Positions 225 to 49,164 are shown, numbered from the stretch's first letter. The stretch is 64,000 nucleotides of DNA from an uncultured Candidatus Berkelbacteria bacterium (GCA_903954185.1 CAJBMM010000005.1:1768-65767), one strand, 5' to 3'. The notes: generated by a model from the sequence alone, not told the origin. Translations and numbers: made by a program.

Positions 225-3218
225 CTAGACAGCTGTTTCCCTTAACACCTCGTCCACTGTGGTCATACCCTCTAGAGCCTTTAGCAAGCCGTCTTGCTTC
301 ATGGTTATCATACCCTCGATAATTGCTTGTTTCTGAATTTCGCTAGTTGCTGCCTTTTTAATTGCCAAATCTTCGATTGCATCACTCATTGACATAACCT
401 CATAAATTCCAATACGTCCTTTATACCCGTTTTGGCATCGCTCGCAACCCTTGCCATGATAAAACACCAACTCGGACTTTATTCTTGCTCTGTCTTTAGG
501 ATTATTTTCGGGAATTTTATTAAGTTCTTCTTGAATTTCGGCAATTACTGCCGGTGGAATTTGAGCAGGCTCTTTGCAACTTTGACAAACTCTACGCACC
601 AAACGTTGACCCATGATAGCATTTATCGATGAAGTGATAAGAAAAGGTTCTACTCCCATATTAATTAAGCGCGGCAACGCTCCGGGAGCATCATTTGTAT
701 GCAGGGTAGAAAGCACCAAATGTCCTGTTAAAGCAGCGTGTGTGGCCATATTAGCGGTTTCAGAATCGCGAATTTCTCCAACCATCACCACATTTGGATC
801 TTGCCGCAAAACAGAACGTAACCCCTCTGCAAAGGTAAAACCAATTTTTGGCTTAATTTGGGCCTGATTTACACCCGCTATCTCATACTCCACAGGATCT
901 TCTAGCGTAATAATATTAACAGTGGGTGTGCTTATACGATTTAAAATTGCATAAAGTGTTGTAGATTTTCCAGAACCAGTCGGTCCAGTAGAAAGTACAA
1001 TGCCATATGGACGTTTTATTCCCTCGATGATTATATCAAACGCGCGTCCAACTACGCCTAAATCTTCTAAAGACAAGATACCATGTGTTTTATCTAAAAT
1101 ACGAAGCACTATCTTTTCACCGTGAACCGTAGGCATAGAAGAAACACGTAAATCTACTGCCCTATCCTTAAACTTCACATCAAATCTGCCATCTTGAGGA
1201 ATGCGGGTTTCATCAATTTTTAATTTGGCTAATATTTTAATGCGGCTAACAATCGCGGCGTGCTGCTCTAATGGCATTCTTATAACATCTTGGAGCATTC
1301 CGTCTACTCTATATCGGATACGTACATCATTAAGCTCTGCCTCTATGTGCACATCAGATGCCCGCAATGTAATTGCGTAACTTACTATTGCGGCAACCAT
1401 CCGCGGAATAAAACCTTCAACGATAATTTTTTGAAGTTCTTCTACTGTTTGCACGTCTTTATTCAATAATGAACCGAGGTCGTCTTCTTCTACATTTGCC
1501 TGTGGAAGCGTTGGTGGAATAATTGGATTATTTTTATCTGATTGTATTGGAATATTGACTTTTGAGGCCTGTGCGATAGGCGCAGCATTAACGGGTGGAA
1601 TTGGCGTGGGCGGAATATTAACATTCTGAAAAACATTAAAGGTGCCCGAACCCAAACGCGCAGAAGCGGAATCGTCTTTCTCTATAGAATGTGGTGTTAC
1701 TGGCGCTGGCGCAGCAACTGGCGCTGGACTTTCAGATGCATACTGAGTTATTACAACATCATCTTCTTTTTTAACCTGGGCTTTAATTTCTGGTTCAATA
1801 TTCGCCTCGGAACGGTTTGCATGCGCAAGCCCAAGCGAAACCATCGCCTTATGAAAGCCAGACTCTGGTTTTATCGCCTTGGTCTTGATAGCTGATTCGT
1901 TTACAGAATCGGGTTTCTGAATAATCTGTTTGTTTTTTTCTGTTGGAGTTTTTACATTTTCATCATTAAATGGTATAGAGACTTTCTTTGGAACAATTTG
2001 AGGTGATGTAGGTACATTTTTTGGCGGAATCGGTAATGCAGAAACTGGCAATGAATTATGAACGCCTGCAGGAGCATGCACAACATTTGTTTCTGTTGGC
2101 TTGCCAGGTAAGTTATGTGGCATCGACATCGGCGCAGGCAATAGCCACTTTGCCACATTCGCATCTGGTAATTTTAACTTTTCTGTTTCTTCATCATATT
2201 TTGCGATCCACTTATCTAAAATGCCCGAATCGTGTTTTTCGATTATCAATAGGACATTATTATGTTCTTCAATAAAGTGCCAAATACGCTTATCTTCCTC
2301 GCGCTGGTCCCTATCGGTTGCAATGTAATATTTTGGCTTCTGGTTAGGCAATTTTTCTAACTTATATACAACAAATCGATATTTACTGGCAACAGCTTTA
2401 GGAATTTTTAGCATCGCGCTTCGATCTGGGTTTTCTGGCAAGTCCTGGATTCGCTTACCATCATATAGGCTTAGACCGTAATCTATATTGACACTGTCAA
2501 ATTTTTTAATTATAAACTTTATTTTATTATTATCACTAATAAATTTTATAGCTGATTTTACTTTTTCAGAATCAGGATCTTCCGCTGCTAACAAATAGCT
2601 TTCTCCAACCTGACCGTAAACTAACATACGATATTTTATAGCTATAGCGACAGGTATTTTTTGCAGTAACTTGGCATCAACAGTTAGCTTTTCACTCTCG
2701 TTTTTAACTTCTTTTGGCATTGCGGGCGATGAATATTCAGATTCGTTCGGATAAACACTAATCCAACGGTTAAATGAATCTGGCGAAGTAACTACAAGAG
2801 TAAATTGTAGTTTTTCTCTACCCTTAATTTCCGATAACACGCCACGCTTATTTTCTTTAATACGAGCAGGATTTGCCACCGCAACCGTAACTTTATTATT
2901 TTCTTTTTTACAAGCTATAATTTCGTACGAAACACATGCAGATTTAGGAATAATTGTCATTACCGCTAAATCTGGAGTAATTGATAGCTCGGTAAATGGT
3001 AAATTCAATACCTTAGCCATTGCAATATTTATAGCCAATCGATTTACTATATTATGAGACTCTAGATAAGTTGCTAAATCTTTAAGCTCTGGCCAATTGG
3101 TAATTTCATTCTTAATGCCCTGAAGCACTGTGTCATTAATAGAACCAGCCAAACGTAAAAAATCGAGCAAAGATGCTTTCTTTTCGGCTTCAGATTTAGT
3201 AAGCACAGATAAGGCCAT
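225..3218 (-). CDS. pilB: Type IV pilus / type II secretion assembly ATPase (GspE/PilB family), unusually long (997 aa), with repeated GspE-N-like N-terminal domains and a Pro-rich linker
   Basis: C-terminal half carries Walker A GPTGSGKSTT, the conserved Asp/His boxes and the CQSC...CERC tetracysteine motif typical of GspE/PilB. The N-terminal ~500 aa contains three segments resembling the GspE N-terminal domain. A Pro-rich stretch (PAPVAAPAPVTP...) links them to the ATPase. Confidence 0.85.
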   Translation of the reverse strand: MALSVLTKSEAEKKASLLDFLRLAGSINDTVLQGIKNEITNWPELKDLATYLESHNIVNRLAINIAMAKVLNLPFTELSITPDLAVMTIIPKSACVSYEIIACKKENNKVTVAVANPARIKENKRGVLSEIKGREKLQFTLVVTSPDSFNRWISVYPNESEYSSPAMPKEVKNESEKLTVDAKLLQKIPVAIAIKYRMLVYGQVGESYLLAAEDPDSEKVKSAIKFISDNNKIKFIIKKFDSVNIDYGLSLYDGKRIQDLPENPDRSAMLKIPKAVASKYRFVVYKLEKLPNQKPKYYIATDRDQREEDKRIWHFIEEHNNVLLIIEKHDSGILDKWIAKYDEETEKLKLPDANVAKWLLPAPMSMPHNLPGKPTETNVVHAPAGVHNSLPVSALPIPPKNVPTSPQIVPKKVSIPFNDENVKTPTEKNKQIIQKPDSVNESAIKTKAIKPESGFHKAMVSLGLAHANRSEANIEPEIKAQVKKEDDVVITQYASESPAPVAAPAPVTPHSIEKDDSASARLGSGTFNVFQNVNIPPTPIPPVNAAPIAQASKVNIPIQSDKNNPIIPPTLPQANVEEDDLGSLLNKDVQTVEELQKIIVEGFIPRMVAAIVSYAITLRASDVHIEAELNDVRIRYRVDGMLQDVIRMPLEQHAAIVSRIKILAKLKIDETRIPQDGRFDVKFKDRAVDLRVSSMPTVHGEKIVLRILDKTHGILSLEDLGVVGRAFDIIIEGIKRPYGIVLSTGPTGSGKSTTLYAILNRISTPTVNIITLEDPVEYEIAGVNQAQIKPKIGFTFAEGLRSVLRQDPNVVMVGEIRDSETANMATHAALTGHLVLSTLHTNDAPGALPRLINMGVEPFLITSSINAIMGQRLVRRVCQSCKEPAQIPPAVIAEIQEELNKIPENNPKDRARIKSELVFYHGKGCERCQNGYKGRIGIYEVMSMSDAIEDLAIKKAATSEIQKQAIIEGMITMKQDGLLKALEGMTTVDEVLRETAV

Positions 3219-4792: not shown

Positions 4793-4903
4793 GCCCCTTA
4801 AGCATTAATAATCAATCTATTATAAGTATAAATAAACGCTTACCACAAGTCAACGAACTTCGCGCATCGCACAACTTGTAACGCGTATCGGTATAAAGGA
4901 AAA

Positions 4904-5257
4904 TTATAGTTTAGATATAATGCCCCAAAGCATTGCTCCGATACGATTCGCAACCTGAGCATATTCATCAAAGCTCTTTTTAGGCAAATACCCCTCTTTT
5001 AAACTAAAATCTAATAGATATTCTGACTCTTTATGCGAACCACAAGAAATTTCTAAAAAATTCTTATTCACTTTAGTTTTTACTCGAGCAAGGCCTTAAG
5101 CATAATTCAACATCACCGAAAGCGCTGAACATCTCAATAGAGAAGTAACGCCATATATTTCCTCCTTGGGAAAACTTCTTGTTATGGCATAAATACCGTG
5201 GGCGTAACCACCGATTAATGATTTTAGCTCTTCATGAAATTTGGAAGTGCTATCCAT
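4904..5257 (-). pseudogene. four-helix-bundle protein (23S rRNA intervening-sequence protein / DGR Avd-like family) interrupted by an in-frame TAA at 5096..5098
   Basis: Minus-strand translation MDSTSKFHEELKSLIGGYAHGIYAITRSFPKEEIYGVTSLLRCSALSVMLNYA*GLARVKTKVNKNFLEISCGSHKESEYLLDFSLKEGYLPKKSFDEYAQVANRIGAMLWGIISKL shows the family hallmarks (G.YA.GIY.IT..FPKEE.YGLTSQLRR ... FL.IA.GS..E). Reading continues in frame through a single TAA. It is not in the ORF track because each half is short. Confidence 0.6.
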
Positions 5258-5309
5258 AATAAAATTCCTTTAAAACGATGTGCGATGCGTCTTACACGAT
5301 GCGCAACCC

Positions 5310-7076
5310 CTAGGGGTTATCTGAGACGCTAACCGTTGGAGAAAGCTTAGCCATCCCTGGAGGCGGATTTTGAGCTAGTGAAGAATCGTAGCTAACAGTT
5401 AAATTAACACTATCGGCCGAATCGGGCGTTGACACTCCAGAAAAATCGACATTTTGCCTTGCTACAATTGCCCCCAATAAACTTAAAGATTGACTGCCGC
5501 TAGATGTTAGCCCTATAAAATTATGATTGGCAAAGACAGCGACAGATTTTAAATTCGAATTACCAGATACGTTAGTTTGCCAAGCTACATCTTCGCTAGC
5601 AATTAAACCCAGAGCTGCACCAGAAGATTTTTCTATACTTATGTTTTTTATCGTTAATTTGCCGTTAACATAAATTGTTCCAAGCCCAACATTTGTGAGT
5701 GTTTTTATCGCCGAATCAGATTCGATAGCCAAATCCCCATCTATAAACCAAACGTAACCACCTTTTTTCGGGTTTTTAACAGATGCAGAGCTGTTTGTTA
5801 AATTTTGAGCTGATAAATCTAAAATACCAGACCCACTAGTTAATGGTTTTAGATGAAATACGGGGTCTGCATCACAGCTACCATCACAAGTTAAATCGAA
5901 AGCCTGATTTGCCCCAGAAATAATATTTTTAATACTATGAAAATTTGATTTACTTATTACGAAATCTGGATTTTTGCGAACAAGAGCCAAATTTACATCT
6001 AAATATACATTTCCAGACGCGCTAGAACTTAAATCGGTATTTAAACCGGTTACAGAACCATTATCAATTGAATAACTAACATTTTGATTTGCCGTAGATC
6101 CTTTAACTCCACTCGCAATGTGATCACCTGGTAAAAGCACGTTGGACACATTTGATTGATCTACAGTTATTCCCGAGCCAATTTTAATACTGCCTATTAC
6201 AGCGCTTGCAGGAACAGTCATTAATAATGCGCTTGCCGATGCAACCTGAGATCCGCCTACAGATACGGTAGCCTTTGTGTTATACAAGCACACGCCGCCA
6301 CGATTATTTGTATAATTACCATTACACGATAACGAATTATCATTCACAGGCGTACCCACCATAGATCTTAAACCAACCGTATCACCACTTGTAACAGTAG
6401 TATTGCCAACACTAACAGTTACTCCTGGAATCATAAACGCCATATCATATAAATCTGTGTCGCCAGTTTTCTTTACAAACGAACTGGCTACACTATTTTC
6501 TGTTGGAGTATCGATATTTGGTGTAAACATAATATAACCGATGTTAAAAATGTAGTTACTTTGACCGTTATAAACATCGGCCGATGTAACAGGAAATGCA
6601 ACTAAGCGTGATTTATTGCTTGGCATATTTTGAGCCCCAGTTACGGTATAACGCATTTCGGCTTGTTTACCCGCTTCAATTTGCGGTGAAACTCCGGTTG
6701 CCAAACCGTTCGCAAAAGTAACCGAGCCGCCCAAAGCCTCATTAGTTCCAACATTATACCAACCTCCAGCAGAAGGTGTAGTAAAACCATATGTATCTGA
6801 AAGATATGAATCTTTTAATGATATTGAGCCTGTAGACGCGCCAAAATTGGTTACTACGATAGATATTTTAACAACATCGGTTGGTCTAATTACAGTGGCG
6901 CCAATATTTGTCGATACTGCTTGCCCAGCGACAACTTTAGAAGTTGTGCTTTTAAAGGTTTTACTAGCAATAAATGCTGTGGAATTTGCAGCTTTTATGC
7001 GAAACGAACCAAGAACAACCATGGTAAATAACAATAACGCGCAAGTTAGAAAGTATGTTAAATTTTTTCGATTCAT
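5310..7076 (-). CDS. secreted Ser/Thr/Gly/Asn-rich protein (588 aa) with signal peptide; possible pilus-associated adhesin
   Basis: N-terminal signal peptide MNRKNLTYFLTCALLLFTMVVLGSFRIKAANS. Low-complexity beta-rich composition. No recognisable catalytic motif. Immediately downstream of the 953-aa surface protein on the same strand. Confidence 0.55.
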   Translation of the reverse strand: MNRKNLTYFLTCALLLFTMVVLGSFRIKAANSTAFIASKTFKSTTSKVVAGQAVSTNIGATVIRPTDVVKISIVVTNFGASTGSISLKDSYLSDTYGFTTPSAGGWYNVGTNEALGGSVTFANGLATGVSPQIEAGKQAEMRYTVTGAQNMPSNKSRLVAFPVTSADVYNGQSNYIFNIGYIMFTPNIDTPTENSVASSFVKKTGDTDLYDMAFMIPGVTVSVGNTTVTSGDTVGLRSMVGTPVNDNSLSCNGNYTNNRGGVCLYNTKATVSVGGSQVASASALLMTVPASAVIGSIKIGSGITVDQSNVSNVLLPGDHIASGVKGSTANQNVSYSIDNGSVTGLNTDLSSSASGNVYLDVNLALVRKNPDFVISKSNFHSIKNIISGANQAFDLTCDGSCDADPVFHLKPLTSGSGILDLSAQNLTNSSASVKNPKKGGYVWFIDGDLAIESDSAIKTLTNVGLGTIYVNGKLTIKNISIEKSSGAALGLIASEDVAWQTNVSGNSNLKSVAVFANHNFIGLTSSGSQSLSLLGAIVARQNVDFSGVSTPDSADSVNLTVSYDSSLAQNPPPGMAKLSPTVSVSDNP

Positions 7077-7092
7077 GCCATTCCTTTACTAC

Positions 7093-9954
7093 TTATTTAA
7101 CTTGGGTAGCATACTCAACCACAATAGTTCCGTTTGCAGGTACTGTTAGGGGTGATATTGAGATGGTACTAGTATTAACATCGTTTATTGCTAATTCAGT
7201 ATTGTTACCGCCGCTTACAACTACAATATTTTTGTCTCCATTATATTTAAACAATGTCATACCATCTATCGGCAAGGTATCAGTAACTGAAACACCTGTC
7301 ATTGCACTAGATGATAGATTAGTTACATATATTTTAACTCTAATATATTTACCAGTTGTAAGAGTCAGGCCGTTATACCAATTTCCGTCACTGGTAATTG
7401 AATCTCTATTTGATGGACTACCAGTATTATACTGTTGCACCTGCTTTGAAATCTGCAAATTTGATCCGCTAGATTCGCCACCGCTACAATATGTTGCCCC
7501 TAAATCGATAATTCCCGGTTCCCCACCGCTACCCCCAGCACTAATTTTTAGATTGTTAGAGGAGTTCATAAATCCACTAGGCTTACAAAAATCTACGCCT
7601 TTTGGCCAAGCGCTCGAGTCACCAACGTTAACTAGCGTAGAAGTATAACTAGAAGCCGAAACCCTAACTAACCCACCACCCCCATTACCAGGGACTGCAT
7701 AACAATCCAATGATGTGCTTGGACAATCTGTGCCGTCTGTCCATTTTTGACCAAAACTACTTCCGCCAACGGCGTATAGGTTTGAATTTGACGATAAGTC
7801 AAACACACCAGTCACTTTTACATTTATACTTCCGCCACCGCCCGCTCCTGCTCCAGATGAACCAGAGACACCCGATGCAGATATTGTAGAACTATTCATG
7901 GTTAAATTACCACCAACTGTTAATTTAACAGACCCCCCGCCTGATCCGCCAATTTCTATAGGGTAAGCTGAGCTAGTCGCACCGCCACCACCCATTGCCA
8001 TCGCAACTGCATCAAAAGCAGCTCCATTATACGCACCGCGATACGATGTGCCATTTAAAGTAGCAGTCTGATCCCCTGGACCCGCAATCCCAGGTGCATC
8101 CCCGCCGCTATCGATACCTCCACCATAGCCCAAATATCCTCCACCACCCAAACCGGGCCTACCCATGTTACCAACTGAGTTATTACCCACCCTCACGTCA
8201 GCAATAGATGCGGTATATGATCCGCCACCATAGCCTATCACTCCACCGCCACCACCACCAGAATGCTGAGGTGAAGCATGGCCACTATGTCCGCCGCCGC
8301 CACCATTTCCTTCTGCCCAGTTTGAACCAAATTCAGTCCAATCGTTATGCAATATTGGATAGTAACCAAATAAAGTATCTTTTGCTTTTCCACCAATACC
8401 CGGCACAGAAACTCCATTTAATAGGTAATTCACTCCGCCAGGTAAACCTTTTCCGCTAACATCAACTGAACCACCGCTTGCAATATTTACATTTCCCGAT
8501 GTTGCTAATCTTATACCGCTCTTTATGCCAGTACTGACTGCATCACTATGGTTTTGTAATTTATAGTTTTGCAAGTAGTGAGGTTGATACTCTACAGCGC
8601 CTTCTATAAATAACCCAAAGCTATACCCCGAGCCATCACCACGCACGGTATTAGAAAATGGATTTCCCGCAGTATCTAACGCACCCCCACCTGGCACTCC
8701 GTAATTGAATACAAATTTTTGGGTGGCTGCACCCCTAGCCTGCATAAAGCCACTAAATGTACCATTATCCATCAAATTTACACGTGAGAAAAAGTGATAA
8801 TCTGGAGGTTGAGCTAAACCATAACCACTACCATTCCAAAGATAAGTTTTATCCAAAGTATGGTTAATTACAGCTGCTCTTTGGCCAGTGGTCTCTTGAG
8901 CGTATTCAAATCTACTATATCCAGAGCCAGCAATATCTACTTTCCCGACATTTACTCCACTTTCTTGTGGTGCAAATAACCACGCTACGGGTAAATATCC
9001 ATCATAAATAATTTTAACAGTACCACCTGTTGCATTTTGATCAACCACTCTTATCCATAATGAAGCAATATGATCGGTATCTACGTCTGCCGCACTGATT
9101 CTTATTGGCATATACTGTGCATTACCGGCATAAGTAGTGCCAACATAAAGTGTCTTTTCACCACCATTTAATAATGTGCGATCTCCTCCGCAAGTATCCG
9201 TTGTTGTTCTAAATGAAGAGTGTAATTTTTCACAATTTCCGTTTGCTAAGCCGTTACCATAAACACTCTGTGACCAAGTAACAGCATCAATTGCAGGCCC
9301 ACTATCACTCGCTACGCTTCCAATATCAACGGCAGTAGCATCATTGTAACCGGATGCTCTCAGTAAAAATGCCCTCTTAGTAGCGCCAGCAGTTTGAACT
9401 TGCATGTCGAAGTATAAAAACCCAGTATATCTACTTACAAAGTAGTCACTACGTGAAGCGTATGGCACTGCATTACCACGAGAATCGGTAGGTGCAGAGG
9501 TAACCTTGGCATTATTTTGCACCAACATACTTTTCACAGAGACATCGCCAACTAAAGTTAGGGTAGCACTGTCGTTTACTGTAATTTCTAAATCGGTAGG
9601 AGTAGTTGTGCAAGCTTTGCCCCTATATGGCGAAACAACTGTATTATTAGCAAAAGTGTATTTAAAATTATCTGCAGACCAGCGGTTCATTGGCCACAAA
9701 CAGGTACCGTCTACTGTACCATTATTTATAAGCATGTAGCTAGCCTCGGACCCAACAATATTTATTGAGTTTCCGGCCCAACTTCCGTCTGCTGCAAAAA
9801 CTTGTTTTTGCACATTATTAAATGAGAAGAATGTCAAGCCCACAAGTACAGCAACGATGGTCGTTATTGAAATATAGCGCTGGGCATGTACATGACGTAC
9901 TTTCCACCACCAAAAGCGCAAATCTGCCTTAACCTGATTTATTCGATCGTTCAT
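7093..9954 (-). CDS. large membrane-anchored glycine-rich surface protein (953 aa) with C-terminal DUF11-like 'conserved repeat domain'
   Basis: Single N-terminal TM helix (ITTIVAVLVGLTFFSF). Extended Gly runs (GGGGGHSGHASPQHSGGGGGGVIGYGGGSY; GGGGYLGYGGGIDSGGDAPG). The C-terminal ~90 aa (IRVKIYVTNLSSSAMTGVSVTDTLP...) resemble the DUF11/CARDB-type repeat of cell-surface proteins. Confidence 0.55.
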   Translation of the reverse strand: MNDRINQVKADLRFWWWKVRHVHAQRYISITTIVAVLVGLTFFSFNNVQKQVFAADGSWAGNSINIVGSEASYMLINNGTVDGTCLWPMNRWSADNFKYTFANNTVVSPYRGKACTTTPTDLEITVNDSATLTLVGDVSVKSMLVQNNAKVTSAPTDSRGNAVPYASRSDYFVSRYTGFLYFDMQVQTAGATKRAFLLRASGYNDATAVDIGSVASDSGPAIDAVTWSQSVYGNGLANGNCEKLHSSFRTTTDTCGGDRTLLNGGEKTLYVGTTYAGNAQYMPIRISAADVDTDHIASLWIRVVDQNATGGTVKIIYDGYLPVAWLFAPQESGVNVGKVDIAGSGYSRFEYAQETTGQRAAVINHTLDKTYLWNGSGYGLAQPPDYHFFSRVNLMDNGTFSGFMQARGAATQKFVFNYGVPGGGALDTAGNPFSNTVRGDGSGYSFGLFIEGAVEYQPHYLQNYKLQNHSDAVSTGIKSGIRLATSGNVNIASGGSVDVSGKGLPGGVNYLLNGVSVPGIGGKAKDTLFGYYPILHNDWTEFGSNWAEGNGGGGGHSGHASPQHSGGGGGGVIGYGGGSYTASIADVRVGNNSVGNMGRPGLGGGGYLGYGGGIDSGGDAPGIAGPGDQTATLNGTSYRGAYNGAAFDAVAMAMGGGGATSSAYPIEIGGSGGGSVKLTVGGNLTMNSSTISASGVSGSSGAGAGGGGSINVKVTGVFDLSSNSNLYAVGGSSFGQKWTDGTDCPSTSLDCYAVPGNGGGGLVRVSASSYTSTLVNVGDSSAWPKGVDFCKPSGFMNSSNNLKISAGGSGGEPGIIDLGATYCSGGESSGSNLQISKQVQQYNTGSPSNRDSITSDGNWYNGLTLTTGKYIRVKIYVTNLSSSAMTGVSVTDTLPIDGMTLFKYNGDKNIVVVSGGNNTELAINDVNTSTISISPLTVPANGTIVVEYATQVK

Positions 9955-10159
9955 AACTTACCCTCCTAATATTTACTTACGTATGAGCAAGGTCATCTAT
10001 TGAAATCGACAGGATCTCTCGCCCCGCTAAGCGGGGCATACGAGACGCTTAGCGTTTCGTCGAACTCGAGATGACATTGAACGAGTATCTTACGATACGC
10101 GTTTCATGCTTCATGCTATACAAAATATGCCTTACATCTATTATATATTATCGATTAAG

Positions 10160-10370
10160 TAGTACAAGAGCTGGGGGCATAGAGCATGAAACATTGTGCT
10201 TGATTCCAGCCAGACTAAAGTCTGTGCTCCGAGTTAACCCCGAAGAACACACTTTAGTGTCGTTTGCCAAGCTCCCGTCCTTCACTAAAGTTACGGAGGG
10301 CAAGAAAGCTTGTACTCCGTCGCCGTTTGGAGAACATACTTTAGTGTGGCCACGTTAAAACGTGTTCTAC
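10160..10370. repeat. dispersed repeat family B copy (modules cagacTTTAGTCTGg, cccgtccttcactaaagttacggagggcaag, agcttgtact)
   Basis: Closely related copies at 23991..24100, 26386..26565 and 28600..28705. Confidence 0.7.
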
Positions 10371-11899: not shown

Positions 11900-13867
11900 G
11901 TGAACACTTCTGAAACAGAAAGCGCAGCAAGATGGATGAGATATTGGATTTTAAAGATGACCACTCGGGCTGAATCTGGACATGTTACATCATCTTTATC
12001 TGCTGTTGATATTTTAGCCGCCATAATGGATAGCGGTTTTATTTACGATGTAGAAAACCCGCATAACCAAAATAATGACCGATTAATCTTTTCTAAAGGC
12101 CATGCAACCCCGTTATATTACTCTTTTTGGGCACTGACCAGTGGTATCGAACCCGAACAATTGCTTGAATATCGTCAGTTTGGCTCTATATTAGAAGGCC
12201 ATCCAACACCGCAATTCATCCATACTATTGCGGCAACTGGTTCTTTAGGAATGGGGCTTGGGATAGGCACAGGAGTAGCTTTAGGATTTAAAAAATTGAA
12301 ATCTACAGGAAAAGTTTGGGTGTTATTAGGTGATGGAGAGCTAGCAGAAGGTTCGGTGTGGGAAAGCGCAGCCTTCGCATCGCAAAACAATCTTAACAAT
12401 TTAATCGCTATTGTAGATATCAATCGGCTTGGCCAATCTGGCGAAACTGCATATGGATGGAACGATAGTGTGTATAAGCAACGTTTTGAGGCATGGGGCT
12501 GGAAAACCATAATTGTTGATGGTCACAATATCAAAGATATTAAGCGAGGCTTGCATGAAGCGTCTCAAATTAGCAATACGCCAATTGTAATTCTAGCGAA
12601 AACTATTAAAGGTAGGGGCGTGTCTTTTTTAGAGAATATCGAAGGGTGGCATGGTAAGGCGTTAAATGAGGAAGAATGCAAACGCGCTTTAGCCGAACTG
12701 GGTGATATAAAACATAATTTACAAATAAAGTTAACAGCACCAAAAACGACGATGCATATAAATCGGAAGGTGGCTCCCGAAATACTGTCATCCTCGACTA
12801 GCCTATTCGAGGATCCAAAAACTAATAATTATGTGGATTCCTGCTTTCGCAGGAATGACGGCCAAAAGAATGGCGATAATTCAAATATAAAAGAACATAT
12901 TCCAAATCCTCTACAACCTACAACCCACAACCCACAACCTGACATTTCGCCTCGTGAAGCAATAGGCCATCAACTTGCCATCGCTGCAGAAGATGATGAT
13001 CGGCTACTCATTATCGATGGTGATGTAAAAAATTCCACACATTCTGAAATTGTCAGCCAAAAAACTCCTGAGCAACTTATAGAATGCTATATCGCCGAGC
13101 AACAAATGGTCGAGCTAGCCATTGGACTAGATAAAATTGGTTTTGCGCCTGTAGTAGATACATTCGCAGCATTTTTAACCAGAGCTCATGACCAAATTCG
13201 CATGGCTGCAATCTCTAAATCGAATATAATATTTATTGGCACTCATGTTGGTATTTCCATTGGAAAGGATGGTCCAAGCCAAATGGGTTTGGAAGATATT
13301 GCTATGTTTCGCCCGTTAGTCGATTCCACCATCGTCTCCCCTGCCGATACTCATAGTGCAATCCAGCTAACTACTCAATTAATCGGTTGTCGCGGAATTA
13401 GATATATTAGAGCCTTACGTGAAGTAACGCCTTGCATATACAATCAAAAAGACCAAATTGAGGTTGGCAAATGGCATGTCTTAAAAAACACATCTAAATC
13501 GCAAGTTGCCATTCTTGCTACTGGCATATCTGTACACAGCGCGCTTAAAGCACATGATAAATTGCTAAGCGATAACATTCCCACTATGATTGTGGATTGC
13601 TATAGTATTAAACCGCTGGATAAAGATAAACTAATAGAAATTGCTACCAAATTTAGACATATAATCATTGTCGAAGATCATTATTATCAAGGCGGGCTAG
13701 GCGATTCAATACTAGAGGCATTAAGCGAATTAAACATCGTTATACCAAATGTTTACAAGATAGCCGTGCAAAATATACCCAGATCTGGCACACCAAAAGA
13801 TTTGATGCAAAACGAGGGTATTGACGAAAAAGGTATAATAAAAAAAGTAAAAATGATTGTAAAATAA
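11900..13867 (+). CDS. tkt: transketolase with N-terminal (TPP-binding) and C-terminal (pyrimidine-binding) halves fused through a ~55-aa linker encoded by a dispersed-repeat insertion
   Basis: N-terminal half: ESGHVTSSLSAVDILAAI, GHATPLYY, LGDGELAEGSVWE. C-terminal half: IAEQQMVELAIGL, GTHVGISIGKDGPSQMG, and C-terminal domain. Likely start is GTG 11900 preceded by AGGAG; the ORF track begins at 11831 and overlaps mntH. Linker 12780..12945 contains the intergenic repeat motif tatgtggattcctgctttcgcaggaatgac. Confidence 0.8.
   Translation: MNTSETESAARWMRYWILKMTTRAESGHVTSSLSAVDILAAIMDSGFIYDVENPHNQNNDRLIFSKGHATPLYYSFWALTSGIEPEQLLEYRQFGSILEGHPTPQFIHTIAATGSLGMGLGIGTGVALGFKKLKSTGKVWVLLGDGELAEGSVWESAAFASQNNLNNLIAIVDINRLGQSGETAYGWNDSVYKQRFEAWGWKTIIVDGHNIKDIKRGLHEASQISNTPIVILAKTIKGRGVSFLENIEGWHGKALNEEECKRALAELGDIKHNLQIKLTAPKTTMHINRKVAPEILSSSTSLFEDPKTNNYVDSCFRRNDGQKNGDNSNIKEHIPNPLQPTTHNPQPDISPREAIGHQLAIAAEDDDRLLIIDGDVKNSTHSEIVSQKTPEQLIECYIAEQQMVELAIGLDKIGFAPVVDTFAAFLTRAHDQIRMAAISKSNIIFIGTHVGISIGKDGPSQMGLEDIAMFRPLVDSTIVSPADTHSAIQLTTQLIGCRGIRYIRALREVTPCIYNQKDQIEVGKWHVLKNTSKSQVAILATGISVHSALKAHDKLLSDNIPTMIVDCYSIKPLDKDKLIEIATKFRHIIIVEDHYYQGGLGDSILEALSELNIVIPNVYKIAVQNIPRSGTPKDLMQNEGIDEKGIIKKVKMIVK
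12826..12859. repeat. dispersed palindromic repeat family A core (ttatgtRgattcctgc-ttcg-gcaggaatgac) located in frame inside tkt
   Basis: Near-identical to intergenic copies at 20607..20640, 24224..24256 and 24183..24207, and to reverse-orientation copies at 19249..19325, 29667..29745 and 59288..59435. Confidence 0.8.
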
Positions 13868-22959: not shown

Positions 22960-23889
22960 ATGTCTTTATCCACATCACAGCTGCAAGCCAAGCAAGCTAC
23001 ATTAATGCAACACATGCCTATGCCCAAAGAGGTGTTAAAGCATTTAAACGACTGGTATAAAATTGAGCTTTCATACACTTCTTGCGCTATAGAGGGCAGT
23101 GCCCTATCGCGCGCCGATTGTGCCCTGGCTATCGAAAAGCAACTAGCCTCTGGGGGTAAAAAAATATCCGATCATTTGCAAGTTATCGATAATGCCAAGG
23201 CTTGGGAGGTGGTACGCGATTTGGGCGCAAAAAAATCTGATCACGAAATTGACGCATCGGTAATCTCCACAGTTTATCGCCTACTTTCATCGCAGCCGTT
23301 AGATAAAGGTAAGCTCAACAATGTTTTAGCAAGCAAAACGAGTAACGATTTAGAGGCAATCATTAATTGTCATTTTCAATATCTATCACAAAAACCTTTT
23401 CCTGAGCAAAACGGACAAATGGCTCGCCTACTCTTGAACCTCTCTTTAATGCAGGCCGGTTTTACACCAGCAGTGATAGAGACTAGGGTTAAACCCCGCT
23501 ATATTAAGGCAATAGCAAACTATGCCGCAAGTCCAGCGCAGTTGCAGCAAATTATTTACTACGCTATTGCAAAATCTTTAGATATTTTTATTAAAACAGC
23601 TGAGAATGGCGTGAGTTCGCTTTCGCATACAAGTAAACAACCTGTTAAAATTGTGGCTAAGCAAGGTTTGTTAAAAATTGGTGAGTTGGCGGCCGTGGCT
23701 GGCGAAACGGTGCCAACAATTAGATTTTGGACCAAAGAGGGATTACTTGCTGTTCAAGAGCTTTCTCGTGGTGGATATCAACTTTACGATCATTTTCAAA
23801 TTGCCAAAGCGCAACAAATTAGGGCGTTGCAAAACGAACAAAAGTTAAGCATTAAAGAACTAAAAGCCAAGTTAGCTGGTAGCTTGTAG
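22960..23889 (+). CDS. Fic-family protein with degenerate active-site motif fused to a C-terminal MerR-type HTH
   Basis: Fic N-terminal motif SCAIEGSALS. Core motif reads KPFPEQNGQMARLL in place of the canonical HPFxDGNGRxxRLL (His to Lys, Gly to Gln, Arg to Gln). C-terminus LKIGELAAVAGETVPTIRFWTKEGLL is a MerR HTH. Confidence 0.7.
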   Translation: MSLSTSQLQAKQATLMQHMPMPKEVLKHLNDWYKIELSYTSCAIEGSALSRADCALAIEKQLASGGKKISDHLQVIDNAKAWEVVRDLGAKKSDHEIDASVISTVYRLLSSQPLDKGKLNNVLASKTSNDLEAIINCHFQYLSQKPFPEQNGQMARLLLNLSLMQAGFTPAVIETRVKPRYIKAIANYAASPAQLQQIIYYAIAKSLDIFIKTAENGVSSLSHTSKQPVKIVAKQGLLKIGELAAVAGETVPTIRFWTKEGLLAVQELSRGGYQLYDHFQIAKAQQIRALQNEQKLSIKELKAKLAGSL

Positions 23890-23990
23890 CGAGTGTGTCG
23901 TAGGGGCATAACCCACGTGTCCGCCCAATTCATCAGTAGGAGGTTGTGCGATGAAGTTGTAGAGGTAATTTTTTGAATATATTATTTTTG

Positions 23991-24100
23991 CCAAGCTAAA
24001 GCTTGTTCTACGATTATTTGTAAAACAGACTTTAGTCTGGAACAAACCAAGCTAAAGCTTGTGCTACAAGACACCTTTCGTAGAGCACACTTTAGTGTGG
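23991..24100. repeat. dispersed repeat family B copy (ccaagctaaagcttgtNctac ... acagactttagtctgg ... cacactttagtgtgg)
   Basis: Matches 28600..28705, 26386..26565 and 10160..10370. Confidence 0.7.
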
Positions 24101-24441
24101 CTATTAACAAACTACAACTTGGATCCAGTGAGGTATTTGAGCTTGTGTATTCCAAATTCCAGATCTGCAGAGTATTTATCGTGTCATTCCTGCGAAGGCA
24201 GGAATCCAGTCTATCATAAATTTATTATGTAGATTCCTGCCTTCGCAGGAATGACAATGTGCAAAAATATTTAATTAGCAGTTCTATATTTTGCCACTTC
24301 CGTTACTTCTGCTACTTATTCTCTTTAGTCATTAGTCATTCGGATTTTTTGATTTCTGCCGTGCCGTCCGCTGTGCCATCCGTAGCTTTAGCGTAGGATT
24401 GGTAGCCTTGCGCGAAGGATCGGTAACTTTATTTACTTCTG

Positions 24442-24753
24442 CTATTCTGTCGCTTCTTCTTTCGCAGCGGGTTGGCTTGTTATCATATTTTGTCGCTTTT
24501 GCTGATAACATTCATCACACAAAATATCATTTGGGTTATTTGGTTTAAAACCAACTGTATCTTTTTTGCCACAAGCTTTACAAATTATTTCGGTTTGTTG
24601 CTCAATTTTGCGCTGTTTAATAGCATTGCGACATTCTTTGCATTTAGTTGGATCGTTCGAAAATCCTTTAGAAGCAAAAAACTCTTGCTCACGAGCGGTA
24701 AAAGCAAACTCTTTACCACAATTTTTACAGATTAATGTTCTATCGATAGACAT
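24442..24753 (-). CDS. zinc-ribbon protein with two CxxC...CxxC units (zf-trcl-like)
   Basis: CKNCGKEFAFTAREQEFFASKGFSNDPTKCKECR repeated as CKACGKK...CDECY. Confidence 0.55.
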   Translation of the reverse strand: MSIDRTLICKNCGKEFAFTAREQEFFASKGFSNDPTKCKECRNAIKQRKIEQQTEIICKACGKKDTVGFKPNNPNDILCDECYQQKRQNMITSQPAAKEEATE

Positions 24754-24826
24754 ATGTTCTCCTTTGTTGTTAAAAAATTATGTAAGGATAATCCCCTGTT
24801 TTCGCTACTTCCGCCCTTTCCCCCAT

Positions 24827-25675
24827 CTATCTGGCTGTCCGTAACCTTCTTTCTCTATCTTTAGCATCGTCTAACATCTCTTTATACTCGTTATTTTGTG
24901 GCTCTAAAGACCATGCTTTAGAAAAATTGCGCACCGCTTTGCTATATTGTCTTAGCGATAGATAACACCTGCCAATATCAGCTTGCCATTCAGCATTCTT
25001 ATCATCAAAATTTGATGCATCTTCATAAAACTTTACGGCTTCGTTATAATTCTCGCGTAAGTAAGAGATGTGCCCTAAAGAATTTAAAATATATCCATTA
25101 CCTGGTAAATATTTTAGTGCTTGTAAAAAAGCTTCTTCAGAATCGTTTAGCGCCATATTAGGCTGCCCTGTAATTTGAGCAACTTCTTTATGCACGGGCG
25201 AAGTTGCGCGGCGTAAAAATATTTGACCCAGTTTATAATAGGCAACAGCGCATTTTGGCTCTTCTGCCGCAATTTGTAAATACAATTTTTCCGCAGTATC
25301 TAACTGGTGCATATCAAAATGCTTCCGCGCTTCTTCCAAAGGTTGTACAAGCTTCGGAAATTTAAAACCAATCTCCTCTAGATTATCTCCTGGTTCTGCA
25401 AATTCGTTTGGTCGCACTATCTTCGGAGGATCGTTAAAAGCAAAATCGTCATCTATTGTCTTCTGGGGCAATTTAATGCTTGCTATTTTAGGAATTGCAA
25501 ACTTAAATTTTGGAATTTTTAACCAATTTATCTTCATCTCATCTCCATTAGCTGTTTCTGGAAATCTTCTAATTATTATGATAAAAACAACCGCAGCTGC
25601 TACTAGTATGATAATTTCATATATTCCCATGATCCCTCTTTTTTGAAACAACATTATTTGGCAATTCAGCGCCAT
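24827..25675 (-). CDS. membrane-anchored TPR-repeat protein
   Basis: N-terminal TM IIILVAAAVVFIIII, then TPR-like helices (AVAYYKLGQIF, AEWQADIGRCYLSLRQYSKAV). Probable start is Met-16 at about 25630. Confidence 0.6.
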   Translation of the reverse strand: MALNCQIMLFQKRGIMGIYEIIILVAAAVVFIIIIRRFPETANGDEMKINWLKIPKFKFAIPKIASIKLPQKTIDDDFAFNDPPKIVRPNEFAEPGDNLEEIGFKFPKLVQPLEEARKHFDMHQLDTAEKLYLQIAAEEPKCAVAYYKLGQIFLRRATSPVHKEVAQITGQPNMALNDSEEAFLQALKYLPGNGYILNSLGHISYLRENYNEAVKFYEDASNFDDKNAEWQADIGRCYLSLRQYSKAVRNFSKAWSLEPQNNEYKEMLDDAKDRERRLRTAR

Positions 25676-26312
25676 CTATTAAGTGAAGATAAGTAACTTC
25701 TAGCATTGCCTGCGCATTAATAGCGGTTGAGCTTAACATATTTCTCGCATCAATAATCCATCGCACTGGTTGAATATTTTTTCTGTCTATCAACTCACGC
25801 GTCCACTGATCTAGTAAGATGCCAGACTGGTTGCTTTCAACTATTTTTCCAATCTTCAAGCTCACTGTAGCAAAATCCTGAGCCTTATCAAGTGGTAATA
25901 AAATTTCGATAATATCTGCAACTTTTCTATTGCTCCATTCGCTGCAGCGAGAGCGTATTGTTGGTAGTATTTGCTTGGTTTTTGCAAACAACAATAGCCG
26001 CGTGCATTTTGGCACCTCTTCTAGTATTTTTAGCATTGCATTAGCCGCTGAATCACTACTATTATCAATAAATTTTATCACCGAAAGCCTAACCTTACCT
26101 TGCGACGGAAGGTGACGCGATATTTCTTCTATTTGCCTCGATTCTTCTATACTCAAAACACTCTCCTGGCCGACTTCTGCATAATCAAATTTAGATACAG
26201 CAAATTCAGTTATAGCTTGATTAATAATTTCTTCCCATGTGTTTTCTGGAGCAATAATTAAAAACGATTGTCCGGTGTGCCAAAATGTGTTAGGTGGGGT
26301 GTTGGATTTCAT
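25617..26312 (-). CDS. holB: DNA polymerase III delta-prime-like clamp-loader subunit lacking a canonical P-loop
   Basis: SDSAANAMLKILEEVPKCTRLLLFAKTKQILPTIRSRC matches the delta-prime (HolB) sensor region ...NALLKTLEEPP...TI.SRCQ. No Walker A was seen, as is common in delta-prime. Confidence 0.5.
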   Translation of the reverse strand: MKSNTPPNTFWHTGQSFLIIAPENTWEEIINQAITEFAVSKFDYAEVGQESVLSIEESRQIEEISRHLPSQGKVRLSVIKFIDNSSDSAANAMLKILEEVPKCTRLLLFAKTKQILPTIRSRCSEWSNRKVADIIEILLPLDKAQDFATVSLKIGKIVESNQSGILLDQWTRELIDRKNIQPVRWIIDARNMLSSTAINAQAMLEVTYLHLIDGAELPNNVVSKKRDHGNI

Positions 26313-26385
26313 AATTACACCCTTATATTGCAGAATTTATCAGAACTATGCAAGGCTAACGTAAATGAATTATAACCTCGCATAC

Positions 26386-26565
26386 CAGGCTTTAGTGTGA
26401 TGACAGCCAAGCTCCCCGTCCTTCACTAAAGTTACAGAGGGCAAGAGAGCTTGTACTACGGCAGACCTATTGTAGAACAGACTTTAGTCTGGCTTTGGAC
26501 AAGATCCCGTCCTTCGCATCCACCAGTTGGCCGGAGTTCCCAAGGGCAAGAGAGCTTGTAATACA
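26386..26565. repeat. dispersed repeat family B copy
   Basis: Contains ctttagtgtga, cccgtccttcactaaagttacagagggcaagagagcttgtactac and acagactttagtctgg modules shared with the 10.2 kb, 24.0 kb and 28.6 kb copies. Confidence 0.7.
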
Positions 26566-26602
26566 TCTAGGTTTTTCAACTCAAGATACAATAAATTATT
26601 GA

Positions 26603-27271
26603 TTAAATAATAGTAGCACGCACAATAAAGTTAGCTATGGCAATTAGTGGATTCATAACCATGCTCAAAACATTAATTGAACCGCCTGTAAAATTGCTTG
26701 AGAAAACAAGTGCAATAAGTAGAAATGGCCCAATTCGTTCGAACGATTCTTTTGCATCGCTTGCCAAAAAATAATTGAGAACTTTAGACCCATCTAAAGG
26801 TGGAATAGGGATGATGTTGAATACAGCTAAAATAATATTTATAGAAACTAAGGCATCTAAAAATAAATATCCCAGCGAGTGCGTTACATCAATTCCAAGC
26901 ATTATCATGATTCTAGCAGGTAAAAACAAAATTAATGCAGTAACAATATTAGAAATTGGACCAGCTAAAGCAATTTTTATCTCATCTGTATCGTGTTTTA
27001 ACGCATGATCATTATAAGGAACTGGCTTGCCAAAGCCAAAACCAGCTATTAGAAATAAAAATATTCCTAAGGGGTCTATATGCGCAAAAGGATTTAAGGT
27101 TAGCCGACCCATTAATTTTGCCGTGTCATCACCTAGACGAGTTGCCATCCATGCATGAGAAAATTCATGAATACCAATCGCCATTAAAATACCAAAAATA
27201 ATTCCAAGTATAACCGCAATTGCCATTGTGGGCTGATTAGTATATTGCTGCCAAATTGAAATTAATAACAA
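26603..27271 (-). CDS. site-2 protease family (peptidase M50) integral-membrane zinc metalloprotease
   Basis: HEFSHAW HExxH motif in the first TM region. Multiple TM helices. LDGS motif near the C-terminus. Confidence 0.75.
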   Translation of the reverse strand: MLLISIWQQYTNQPTMAIAVILGIIFGILMAIGIHEFSHAWMATRLGDDTAKLMGRLTLNPFAHIDPLGIFLFLIAGFGFGKPVPYNDHALKHDTDEIKIALAGPISNIVTALILFLPARIMIMLGIDVTHSLGYLFLDALVSINIILAVFNIIPIPPLDGSKVLNYFLASDAKESFERIGPFLLIALVFSSNFTGGSINVLSMVMNPLIAIANFIVRATII

Positions 27272-27422
27272 CTCACAACTCCTTTTTGCTTACTACTCAC
27301 TTCCAGCTACCCAATAAACTCTGTACTCTTGAATAATTCTCTAAAATAGTATAAAATAAATAAAGAATTGTTTCGCATGCATTAATCTTAATGAAAATAT
27401 ACCAATAGGTAAAGGAAAAAGA

Positions 27423-27584
27423 ATGTCTGTTTGCAGCCTCTGCTTAAAAACTCCAGCCGTAGCTAATAATGTACCAAAATCCGTGCATAAAACCAAGAGA
27501 TCAACAAAGCCAAATTTACAAAAAATAAGTGGCATTTTGGTATGCACTCGTTGCTCTAGAACTATTAAAAAATATCAAAGCTAG
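27423..27584 (+). CDS. rpmB: 50S ribosomal protein L28
   Basis: 53-aa product MSVCSLCLKTPAVANNVPKSVHKTKRSTKPNLQKISGILVCTRCSRTIKKYQS with L28-type Cys pairs and PNLQ motif. RBS AAAGGAAAAAG. Below the ORF-track length cut-off. Confidence 0.8.
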   Translation: MSVCSLCLKTPAVANNVPKSVHKTKRSTKPNLQKISGILVCTRCSRTIKKYQS

Positions 27585-27872
27585 TCGAATAGTCTCACTT
27601 GGACAGCCGATCGCCAGATCGTATCTATATATGTAGAATATTTAGATTCCGGATCACCCGTCCGAAAATGACATTTTGTAGGAACAGATTGCCGCGCTTT
27701 AGAACATTGGGTGTTCTTTCAATCGCAATGACATATAAAAAGATATTCCACAACTTAGCACATCTAGTCAGCCTATCGAACCTATTTTGACTTTTGAATT
27801 ATCTTTATATATCTTGCCAATTTTAAAGATAAACGCTATTATCCTTATCATAACTAATTTATAAGGAACTGA

Positions 27873-28589
27873 ATGAATATTACAATCGAGAATATTAAAT
27901 CTGCAACAGCTAAACTGCCCGTGGCAGTTTTTTGTATGGATGGACGCATGCGTCCGAATAACTCTGAATTAAGACCATTTATTGGATTAGCTGGCAGTGG
28001 CGTTTTGTGGGACGATGAATATGTTGCTCTTTTTGTACAAAAACTAAAAGATGCCAAAATTGACACCAGCTTAATTACTGTAACTTGGCACGAATTCTGC
28101 GGTGCTTGCAATGTTTTTAAATCAAAAAACCCAAACGATAATCGATCTCAGAATGAAATTGCCCAGTGGGGCGCTGAAAGATTAGCAACTGCGCTAGGTT
28201 CTGTAAAACCGATACTAAAAGTTGGTTGGAGTGAAAATTGCGATATCGCAGCTATGGGTAACCCCGATCATCATAGTGAACCCGCAATTATAATTGACGG
28301 TACAGGTAAATTGGATACTGAAAAAATTGATTTAGATAATGCATTTTTGCTTTCACATGCGTATGCTCCAGATGGTGATTGGATGCAACAAGAGTGCGAT
28401 ATTGCCTTAAATATTGCCATGGGTGAGCACGGCCCCGGAAAAGAACATTTTACTCAAAATCCAATGCCCGTTTATATTATCGGTAACGACAAAGAACAAG
28501 CCGAGCACAATCACGAAATTTTATCTCATGTTTTCGAAAACCACAAGACACAAATTAATCCGATAAAACTTGCAATCTCCGCGAAGTAA
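27873..28589 (+). CDS. hypothetical protein with beta-carbonic-anhydrase-like CxDxR ... HxxCG motif pair
   Basis: VFCMDGRM at residue ~20 and WHEFCGAC about 52 residues later reproduce the spacing of the beta-CA zinc-ligand motifs (CxDxR ... HxxCG). The rest is not recognisable. Confidence 0.3.
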   Translation: MNITIENIKSATAKLPVAVFCMDGRMRPNNSELRPFIGLAGSGVLWDDEYVALFVQKLKDAKIDTSLITVTWHEFCGACNVFKSKNPNDNRSQNEIAQWGAERLATALGSVKPILKVGWSENCDIAAMGNPDHHSEPAIIIDGTGKLDTEKIDLDNAFLLSHAYAPDGDWMQQECDIALNIAMGEHGPGKEHFTQNPMPVYIIGNDKEQAEHNHEILSHVFENHKTQINPIKLAISAK

Positions 28590-28599
28590 AAACTTCATA

Positions 28600-28705
28600 G
28601 ACCAGAATTTAGCCTGATTATAACCAAGCTAAAGCTTGTACTACAGCAGACCCCGTAGAACAGACTTTAGTCTAGTAAGACCAAGCTAAAGCTTGTGCTA
28701 CAACG
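28600..28705. repeat. dispersed repeat family B copy (two ccaagctaaagcttgtRctaca units flanking acagactttagtcta)
   Basis: Direct comparison with 23991..24100. Confidence 0.7.
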
Positions 28706-28793
28706 AAATATTTTCACGCTCATTTGACCTAATTTGAAACATTGAGCAATATATATCTAAAATTATTCCGAAAAATTGTATCTTCGCACCTTA

Positions 28794-28958
28794 TTGACAT
28801 GAAACTACCATATATAGTATTATTATTAATGCCCTGTTAGTGAGGACATTCCTGTGCTCGTTAAATATAGGGGGCATAACAGGTCAATTCGCGTCTCCAC
28901 GTATAAGCAGACGCCATAGACGTTCACCTGAAATTGGGAGCTAGTTAGCTCCCTTTTT
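28794..28958 (+). ncRNA. candidate small RNA (~130 nt) with sigma70-like promoter and intrinsic terminator; family not recognised
   Basis: TTGACA at 28794..28799, 18-nt spacer, TATTAT at 28818..28823. Three predicted hairpins, including gcgtct...agacgc. Terminal GGGAGCT-agtt-AGCTCCC followed by TTTTT (28936..28958). No ORF. Confidence 0.3.
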
Positions 28959-49148: not shown

Positions 49149-49164
49149 CTAAATCTCCAGTTTT

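Follow-up and report, generated by a model that had tools for sequence, protein, structure and literature searches.

For 30 years, the "intervening-sequence protein" family has remained an orphan, its members being read as ribosomal proteins, as accessory variability determinants (Avd) of diversity-generating retroelements (DGRs) or as Cas-associated proteins, depending on where their genes are located. Here we examine a member of this family, PF05635, encoded on the minus strand at positions 4904 to 5257 of a 64,000-nt stretch of DNA (the window) from an uncultured Candidatus Berkelbacteria bacterium (GCA_903954185.1, CAJBMM010000005.1:1768-65767). We hold with good confidence that the locus is a decaying copy of a cassette of the intervening sequence (IVS) type, in which a PF05635 open reading frame (ORF) stands between inverted tandem-heptamer arrays, outside rRNA. 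The closest described system is the IVS in the 23S rRNA of Coxiella burnetii, which measures 428 nt (444 nt predicted), possesses a 28-bp terminal stem cut by RNase III and carries in its loop an S23p/PF05635 ORF reported to be "undergoing reductive evolution" (PMC4990558). Tandem heptamers (GACAGAT, two to three copies) precede this ORF in a number that varies among strains, and the cut removes the Shine-Dalgarno region (PMC4990558).

An RxxxSxxxNxxE motif was previously pointed out for the PF05635 family, and the presence of its genes inside cas operons was read as a functional association with CRISPR-Cas (PMC3936711). The family was still termed functionally uncharacterized in a 2024 survey of rRNA insertions in the Candidate Phyla Radiation (CPR) (PMC11270868). 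As for heptamers, the TAACTGA repeats of Beggiatoaceae, cyanobacteria, and Bacteroidetes are direct repeats found upstream of many kinds of genes (PMC4679880). In the searchable literature, we found no link of these repeats, or of the cyanobacterial short tandemly repeated repetitive sequences (STRR), to PF05635 genes or to inverted pairing, and the Coxiella IVS study (PMC4990558) is the only one we found that joins heptamer or STRR repeats with PF05635. We found no description of heptamer-bracketed PF05635 cassettes outside rRNA either, in a search that covered subscription journals poorly, so that a prior description is possible. This class of cassettes appears to be underdescribed and links several loose ends.

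Anatomy of the cassette and its insertion slot

Translation of 4904-5257 (minus strand) yields 117 codons with a single internal stop, a TAA at codon 54 (plus strand 5096-5098), and the reading frame is open both before and after it, as the original prediction, made from the sequence alone, had noted. When the stop is replaced by X, the protein reaches 72.1 bits against PF05635 (23S rRNA intervening-sequence protein; E value of 5e-20, cutoff of 33.8) and 71.5 bits against TIGR02436 (four helix bundle protein; cutoff of 24), which confirms the family membership that had been recognized by eye. None of the 307 database relatives exceeds 66% identity to the window protein, and the named ones belong to the Patescibacteria/CPR. 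In a profile search of the PDB, the best solved relative of the family is XCC0516 of Xanthomonas campestris (2gsc, E value of 7.5e-16), a homopentameric four-helix-bundle "S23p" protein that shares the RxxxSxxxNxxE motif (PMC3936711). Unlike XCC0516, the window copy lacks two residues of this motif (R43C and E54*). Indeed, an alignment with 20 homologs places the TAA in the column of the near-invariant Glu of LNYxEG, which is the final residue of RxxxSxxxNxxE, and the change from GAA to TAA involves one base. The window ORF departs from the consensus at 5 of the 51 columns that are at least 90% conserved (D16G, Q40L, R43C, E54*, and L75H), compared to 0 to 4 deviations, mostly 0 to 1, in the 20 homologs. 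The GC content of the cassette (37%, compared to 38.9% for the window) is uninformative. A tblastn search of the window matched the gene itself only, revealing no second copy. Viral contigs yielded no relatives and thus gave no indication of a phage vector.

The ORF, now a pseudogene, is embedded in a block of 443 bp (4862-5304, minus strand), delimited by synteny, by the edge of homology with a related locus (L007) and by the minimum free energy (MFE) fold, which we take as the whole inserted cassette. It comprises, in order, a 5' heptamer array, a ribosome-binding site (RBS), the four-helix-bundle ORF, and a 3' inverted heptamer array. The upstream array (5277-5304, minus strand) starts 5 nt past the TAG stop of the preceding gene, which encodes a 588-aa protein, and is composed of the four heptamers GCGCATC, GTGTAAG, ACGCATC, and GCACATC. 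It holds one arm (5279-5289) of an 11-nt perfect inverted repeat, the longest flanking one among 45 genes of the window. The RBS, AAGGA, is recognizable from the sequence at 5266-5270 (minus strand) and in the fold and duplex structures. The downstream inverted array, at 4862-4889 (minus strand) and 14 bases past the ORF stop, also contains four heptamers, which read GCGCATC, GCACAAC, TTGTAAC, and GCGTATC on the plus strand; it was delineated from the sequence and from the duplex between the flanks. In the MFE fold of 4850-5315, a terminal stem of ∼34 bp (15 bp, a 7-by-7 internal loop, and then 3, 4, 8, and 4 bp) encloses the ORF and covers the RBS, AAGGA being paired with UUCCUU just after the ORF stop. 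The duplex predicted between the two 60-nt flanks has an energy of -36.7 kcal/mol (z score of -3.7), a value equalled by 1 of 500 dinucleotide shuffles.

The gene is located downstream of the genes for a 953-aa and a 588-aa protein and upstream of a trio of genes (235, 200, and 86 aa) followed by pilB (PF00437), all on the minus strand, in agreement with the position originally assigned to it between large-protein genes and PilB-side genes. The order Nramp/953/588/235/200/86/PilB is kept in the nearest relatives that we found, namely, contig P0122 and loci L007, L008, and L009. The gap between the 588-like and 235-like genes measures 217 nt in P0122 (PilB 85% identical), 159 nt in L007 (PilB 66% identical), and ∼200 to 285 nt in the more distant L008 and L009, compared to 517 nt in the window. 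None of the four holds a four-helix-bundle gene in this slot or elsewhere in the fetched flanks, which, on the evidence of synteny, indicates that the cassette is a lineage-specific insertion. Downstream, the sequence becomes homologous to L007 again at CGAA(G/A)TTCGTTGACTTGT, directly beside the 3' arm of the cassette. This sequence is the -35 region of a promoter-like site, TTGACT-17-TATACT (4825-4853, minus strand; 10 of 12 positions matched), that would serve the 235-aa gene and the pilus genes. Present in the window and at the same place in L007 (8368-8396), the site is host sequence that abuts the cassette and lies outside it. A MAFFT alignment with L007 was uninformative except on this promoter side.

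Our cassette resembles the 23S rRNA IVSs with an S23p ORF of Coxiella and Leptospira in several respects. The protein family is shared, the ORF is sense oriented relative to the host transcript in both cases, and both have the sporadic distribution that horizontal acquisition would give. The likeness to the Coxiella IVS extends to the size (443 bp versus 428 to 444 nt), to the placement of the ORF in the loop of a stem formed by terminal inverted repeats (a predicted stem in the window), to tandem heptamers just upstream of the ORF with a copy number that varies between close relatives, to an RBS within or beside the stem, and to an ORF undergoing reductive evolution. In contrast to the 23S IVSs, the window element lies outside rRNA, between protein-coding genes of a pilus operon, and its stem, which is interrupted, consists of a heptamer array on either side. 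The window also differs from Coxiella in that RNase III excision is assumed by analogy.

Our comparisons show the insertion of a discrete block of ∼443 bp, which entered this lineage only and lies, sense oriented, after the stop codon of the 588-aa gene and ahead of the promoter that precedes the pilus genes. Since the stretch from the 588-aa gene to the ORF showed neither a promoter-like nor a terminator-like site, the cassette would lack a promoter and a terminator of its own and would be transcribed by read-through from the 953/588 transcript. By analogy with the 23S IVSs of Coxiella, Leptospira, and Salmonella, the two arms would then fold into a double-stranded RNA stem in the read-through transcript, and RNase III would cut this stem, which would free the cassette RNA and set the 3' end of the 953/588 mRNA. 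The ORF was inactivated by the GAA-to-TAA change at a motif residue and carries further changes at conserved residues. As the pilus genes keep their own conserved promoter, the insertion was probably near-neutral for the host. Neither a transposase nor a clear target duplication was found with the cassette. The original prediction had offered a stand-alone IVS-type gene as a fallback; this was right but understated, as it missed the inverted heptamer arrays and the lineage-specific insertion. Taken alone, the window locus is the dead copy of a selfish or neutral cassette, ordinary in itself, and its anatomy matters more than the fate of its gene.

Heptamer-armed PF05635 genes in CPR genomes and cyanobacterial plasmids

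The architecture described above recurs in homologous metagenome loci, of which we collected 80, including 54 that extend 1.5 kb or more beyond the gene on one side. Dinucleotide shuffles and the other ORFs of the same loci served as controls for flank pairing; flanks paired across loci are unsuited as a control because different loci share heptamer units. The flanks of 76 four-helix-bundle genes form duplexes of -28.1 kcal/mol on average (median of -28.2 kcal/mol for the family), whereas those of 232 other ORFs of the same loci average -15.6 kcal/mol. Mean z scores are -3.7 (74% below -2) and -0.4 (12% below -2), respectively, and the longest exact inverted repeat within the 60-nt flanks averages 10.4 nt for four-helix-bundle genes against 6.5 nt for other ORFs (Mann-Whitney P of 1e-18). 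The arms are tandem heptamer arrays with a consensus of about RCNTRNA (ACGTGAA, ACTTGAA, ACATGTA, and GCACATA, for example). Both sides carry two or more units in 65 of 74 loci, the median being four per side. At the variable third position of the unit, the arms match each other in 69% of the loci, compared to 32% after permutation (none of 1,000 permutations reached 69%), and at the sixth position they match in 77% versus 50%. Such agreement between arms is expected from selection for pairing or from the copying of one arm.

Loci with ORFs that are 98 to 99% identical (L096, L098, and L099) vary by one or two in their number of units. The genes are mostly co-oriented with their upstream (38 of 43 loci) and downstream (44 of 49 loci) neighbors, from which they are separated by median gaps of 42 and 33 nt, respectively. 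No rRNA was found in 19 homologous loci, and an Rfam search of the window returned five tRNAs only. We also observed that the cassette ORFs of L136 (733-1047) and L141 (4322-4636), and that of L143, are identical (315 of 315 positions), although the adjoining homologous flanks are only ∼86% identical and the downstream array differs as well. This pattern points to a recent exchange of the cassette or gene conversion between diverged strains, or to an assembly chimera.

A tblastn search against PLSDB detected the family on 22 plasmids, nearly all of them cyanobacterial. In 15 annotated plasmid loci, nearly all of the genes are sense oriented between co-oriented genes, and the slots that they occupy are diverse: cas6|cas4, cmr2|cmr3, parA-like|parB, integrase|hypothetical, and TraM-domain gene|hypothetical. 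Arrays of GGGAAAA, GGGAACA, or GGGTGTA units, inverted on the two sides, flank the gene in L174, L176, L177, L178, L181, and L182, and GTCAGGA-type arrays precede it in L173, L179, L180, and L183. The lag-7 identity in the flanks of plasmid cassettes reaches 0.51, compared to 0.33 in the flanks of other genes (P of 4.5e-5).

Two of these loci are particularly instructive. L173 and L181 are syntenic Nostoc plasmid operons, 86 to 93% identical, that hold different, unrelated cassettes in neighboring slots (1406-1817 in L173 and 1408-1901 in L181), so that each locus shows exactly what the slot of the other looks like when empty. An empty slot has a spacer of only 3 nt from the stop codon to the next ATG, and in the occupied state these 3 nt are replaced by a unit made of five heptamers, the ORF, and inverted heptamers. 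These exact empty sites establish that the arrays belong to the inserted unit and that the insertions occurred independently and precisely between genes; in cyanobacterial plasmids, the arrays and the ORF are together the inserted unit. We had considered that cassettes might land in preexisting hairpins of the host, a possibility ruled out for these cyanobacterial sites by the 3-nt spacer of the empty state, but one that may still hold for the insertion site in the window.

PF05635 genes within cas operons deserve a comment, as L171, L172, and L175 carry such genes at cas6|cas4 of type I-D and cmr2|cmr3 of type III-B systems. In L172, a 13-unit AAAAGCT array precedes the gene and a 9-unit AAAAGCC array follows it, in direct and not inverted orientation. 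Like the PF05635 genes of cas operons (PMC3936711), the window gene is sense oriented and placed between genes that are functionally linked. From the flanking arrays and the empty sites, we suggest that the genes in question entered cas operons by passive insertion of a cassette instead of being functionally associated with CRISPR-Cas.

More broadly, our results suggest that the varied placements of PF05635 genes share one cause, namely, the landing of a discrete heptamer-armed cassette between genes of any operon. Tentatively, and fully aware that it may prove wrong, we propose that PF05635 "IVS protein" genes in general are the cargo of a widespread and so far undescribed class of small mobile cassettes, composed of a tandem heptamer array, the ORF, and an inverted heptamer array. 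In operons of different phyla (CPR and cyanobacteria; pilus, cas, par, and conjugation genes), these cassettes would insert precisely and in sense orientation between the stop of one gene and the start of the adjacent one. The 23S rRNA IVS would be the special case of rRNA, and unexplained heptamer repeats (STRR, TAACTGA-like, and the ∼30 arrays of the window) would be ORF-less derivatives, footprints, or targets. The intergenic TAACTGA (PMC4679880) and STRR repeats resemble the arrays described here by their 7-nt units, by their 2 to 10 copies, by a mostly intergenic location near start codons, by a patchy phylogenetic spread, and by having no known mechanism. If general, the proposal would account for misleading "guilt-by-association" annotations at cas, DGR, and pilus loci, would make the questions raised by the IVS (its mobility, its processing by RNase III, and the role of its protein) testable in non-rRNA contexts with clean empty sites, and would hint at where the tandem heptamer repeats of cyanobacteria and CPR come from.

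Alternative explanations for the locus and its stop codon

Several observations weigh against reading the window locus as an inserted cassette. The closest empty site for which DNA is available, L007, is too diverged to fix the exact boundaries of the insertion, and the synteny could formally also be explained by loss of the cassette from all four relatives. Moreover, arrays alone are not specific to the cassette, since many other intergenic regions of this genome hold period-7 arrays as well. The heptamers of the window are degenerate (GCGCATC-type and not the common RCNTRNA), with about four units per side, the stem is broken by the internal loop, the fold of the whole element has a z score of only -2.2, and the window contains no RNase III gene.

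We regard it as rather unlikely, but worth serious attention, that the heptamer stem, as the RNA or DNA part of the cassette, is what the host retains, the ORF being expendable. The stem would then help to process or stabilize the 953/588 transcript at its 3' end or would insulate the pilus promoter from what precedes it. The authors of the Coxiella study came to the same conclusion for their IVS (PMC4990558). The flanks of the window gene pair better than the family median even though the ORF is dead, and ORF-less inverted heptamer pairs occur in the same slot of L009 and at 10103-10190 of the window. However, the ORF has one stop and no frameshift, such that the gene may have died too recently for decay to have reached the stem, and L007 and L008 are devoid of any such structure.

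The heptamer arrays might instead be binding sites of the four-helix-bundle protein, which would then be an autoregulated nucleic acid-binding factor that targets intergenic arrays. The arrays do hug the ORF in both CPR and cyanobacteria, and the window contains ∼30 period-7 arrays, with a lag-7 identity of 0.31 in intergenic DNA compared to ∼0.27 at other lags and no such peak in coding DNA; furthermore, RCNTRNA-type arrays of at least three units number six against 0.1 expected. What makes this explanation improbable is that the unit has a different sequence in different loci although the protein is conserved, a pattern that speaks against sequence-specific recognition, and that the matching between arms indicates pairing and not a shared protein site.

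A quite different interpretation, which the original prediction gave as one of two options, is that of a decayed DGR remnant. The gene would then have been the Avd of a retroelement that diversified the 588-aa and 953-aa proteins and has since lost its reverse transcriptase (RT) and template repeat. Some of our data are compatible with this interpretation: Avd proteins of the bAvd type (PF22296) are also small basic four-helix bundles of ∼115 aa, common in CPR; PF05635 and bAvd are related families, and precomputed Pfam annotation gives both for homologs; the adjoining genes are large and encode N-terminal hydrophobic segments; and one homologous locus, L142, lies inside a DGR. Nevertheless, the window protein reaches 16.1 bits with the bAvd model, far from the cutoff of 40, and the PDB profile search of the family returned no bAvd match. 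The window showed no DGR-type RT motif ([ILV]GxxxSQ...YxDD) in six frames, no real match to the RT of L142 by tblastn (best E value of 0.74), and no RVT_1 domain in Pfam scans of ORFs of at least 213 aa. These ORFs are ordinary chromosomal genes, including those for PilB, Nramp, transketolase, the dcw cluster, aminoacyl-tRNA synthetases, RadA, RecJ, and RecO. In a self-blastn of the window (word size of 9, +1/-1), no imperfect repeat touched 5310-9954, where the 588-aa and 953-aa genes are located, and no repeat displayed an adenine-specific mismatch spectrum, in line with the earlier failure to find an RT or a pair of template and variable repeats. The 588-aa protein contains no lectin-type or other Pfam domain and so lacks the C-type-lectin or Ig-type variable C terminus expected of a DGR target, and its gene has no repeat elsewhere in the window. 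In addition, the relatives with the same 953 and 588 genes have no four-helix-bundle gene.

An RT was found in 1 of 80 loci, which makes for an instructive control. This locus, L142 (694-4519), is a complete CPR DGR, in which the target is of the Lcl_C type (61.8 bits) and the RT (RVT_1, 73.8 bits) lies on the opposite strand. The Avd of this DGR scores 79.7 bits with bAvd and 25.2 bits with PF05635, and an additional gene, wedged between the target and avd and flanked by heptamers, scores 84.9 bits with PF05635 and 34.7 bits with bAvd. The score profile of the window gene is that of this cassette gene and not that of the L142 Avd; annotation of such a locus would be misled into "two Avds." We therefore consider a DGR origin of the window gene highly improbable, and the DGR idea can be abandoned for this locus.

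The in-frame TAA is real. A stretch of 551 nt that includes the gene occurs with 100% identity in the ENA assembly ERZ18659389 and in the Logan assembly ERR4221774. At least six assemblies, with at least 18 contigs between them (28 index blocks), have the 55-aa C-terminal fragment called as a gene of its own, and where a second call is listed, a 53-aa fragment precedes it with the same spacing. No intact, near-identical protein is present in a collection of 5.8 billion proteins, in which the best match is 66% identical. Together, the identical independent assemblies, the split calls, and the absence of an intact version establish that the GAA-to-TAA nonsense mutation is real and fixed in all sampled populations. 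Of the two readings left open at first, a nonsense mutation or a sequencing error, the former is correct: the ORF is a pseudogene, with a disabling change at a conserved position that is real in the population. A sequencing or assembly error in a gene that is intact in the organism is scarcely credible: the TAA is one base away from a sense codon in a frame that is otherwise open, but the identical assemblies, the split calls, and the lack of an intact version speak against an error, as do four further substitutions at near-invariant residues. Equally far-fetched is a functional gene expressed by programmed readthrough or recoding of the TAA, which would fit the perfect frame past the stop and its location exactly at the would-be Glu codon, but 22 of the 46 long ORFs in the window end in TAA, more than in any other stop, so that code 11 holds, none of the five tRNAs of the window is a suppressor, further motif residues are gone (R43C and Q40L), and none of the 20 aligned homologs has a stop at this position.

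Neighboring genes and other repeats of the window

The names originally given to the neighbors, "pilN/pilO" and "surface protein," found no support in Pfam or NCBIfam, with N-terminal hydrophobic segments alone being seen; the 588-aa protein belongs to no Pfam or NCBIfam family, and the 953-aa protein has only a subthreshold match to DUF11. PilB (225-3218, minus strand) is unusual in its length of 997 aa, with an N-terminal extension of ∼570 aa ahead of the T2SSE ATPase domain. Three database proteins only, 100, 85, and 66% identical, cover it over its full length, other relatives measuring ∼570 to 600 aa. A metagenome scan with the 235-aa neighbor as the query gave no matches.

In L009, the slot that corresponds to that of the cassette (8100-8305) holds an ORF-less inverted heptamer pair, GAAATGGATAATGCAGAATGCATAATGGATAATGG ... 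GTATGCATTATCCATTTC, with a loop of ∼150 nt in which we detected no coding signal for a four-helix bundle; this pair may be a cassette minus its ORF or a recurrent target. A second ORF-less inverted pair, TTCATGCTTCATGC ... GCATAGAGCATGAA, is found in the window at 10103-10116 (minus strand) and 10177-10190 (plus strand), in the leader between the 953-aa and Nramp genes.

The period-7 tandem arrays of the window are short, nearly all intergenic, and differ in unit sequence from one another. The largest one, with 10.4 copies of TTAGTCA (100% matches), is located at 49164-49236 between ftsW and murD in the dcw cluster, and others are found at 169-198, 12911-12940, 16356-16386, 22478-22497, 22685-22708, 22867-22896, 24325-24340, and 58909-58938, along with ∼20 more. 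RCNTRNA arrays unaccompanied by a four-helix-bundle gene include those at 16762-16782, 19492-19512, 20538-20565, 22522-22542, and 39034-39054.

The region from 16000 to 31000 is distinguished by unusually long intergenic spacers (∼500 to 600 nt) between short genes that mostly lack a Pfam family. Besides heptamer arrays, these spacers hold nested GC-rich palindromes (22542-22634 and 24182-24256) and dispersed repeats of 50 to 120 nt that are 73 to 87% identical, with pairs at 26373-26493 and 10235-10350, 29664-29740 and 19245-19322, 27723-27798 and 22803-22879, and 28617-28703 and 23984-24069. These repeats might be small nonautonomous elements or structured leaders. Within the same region, a 351-aa ORF (21312-22367, plus strand) encodes at its N terminus an HTH_38 domain, a DNA-binding domain typical of transposases of the IS30 type, which is the only domain detected in this protein, no catalytic domain having been found.

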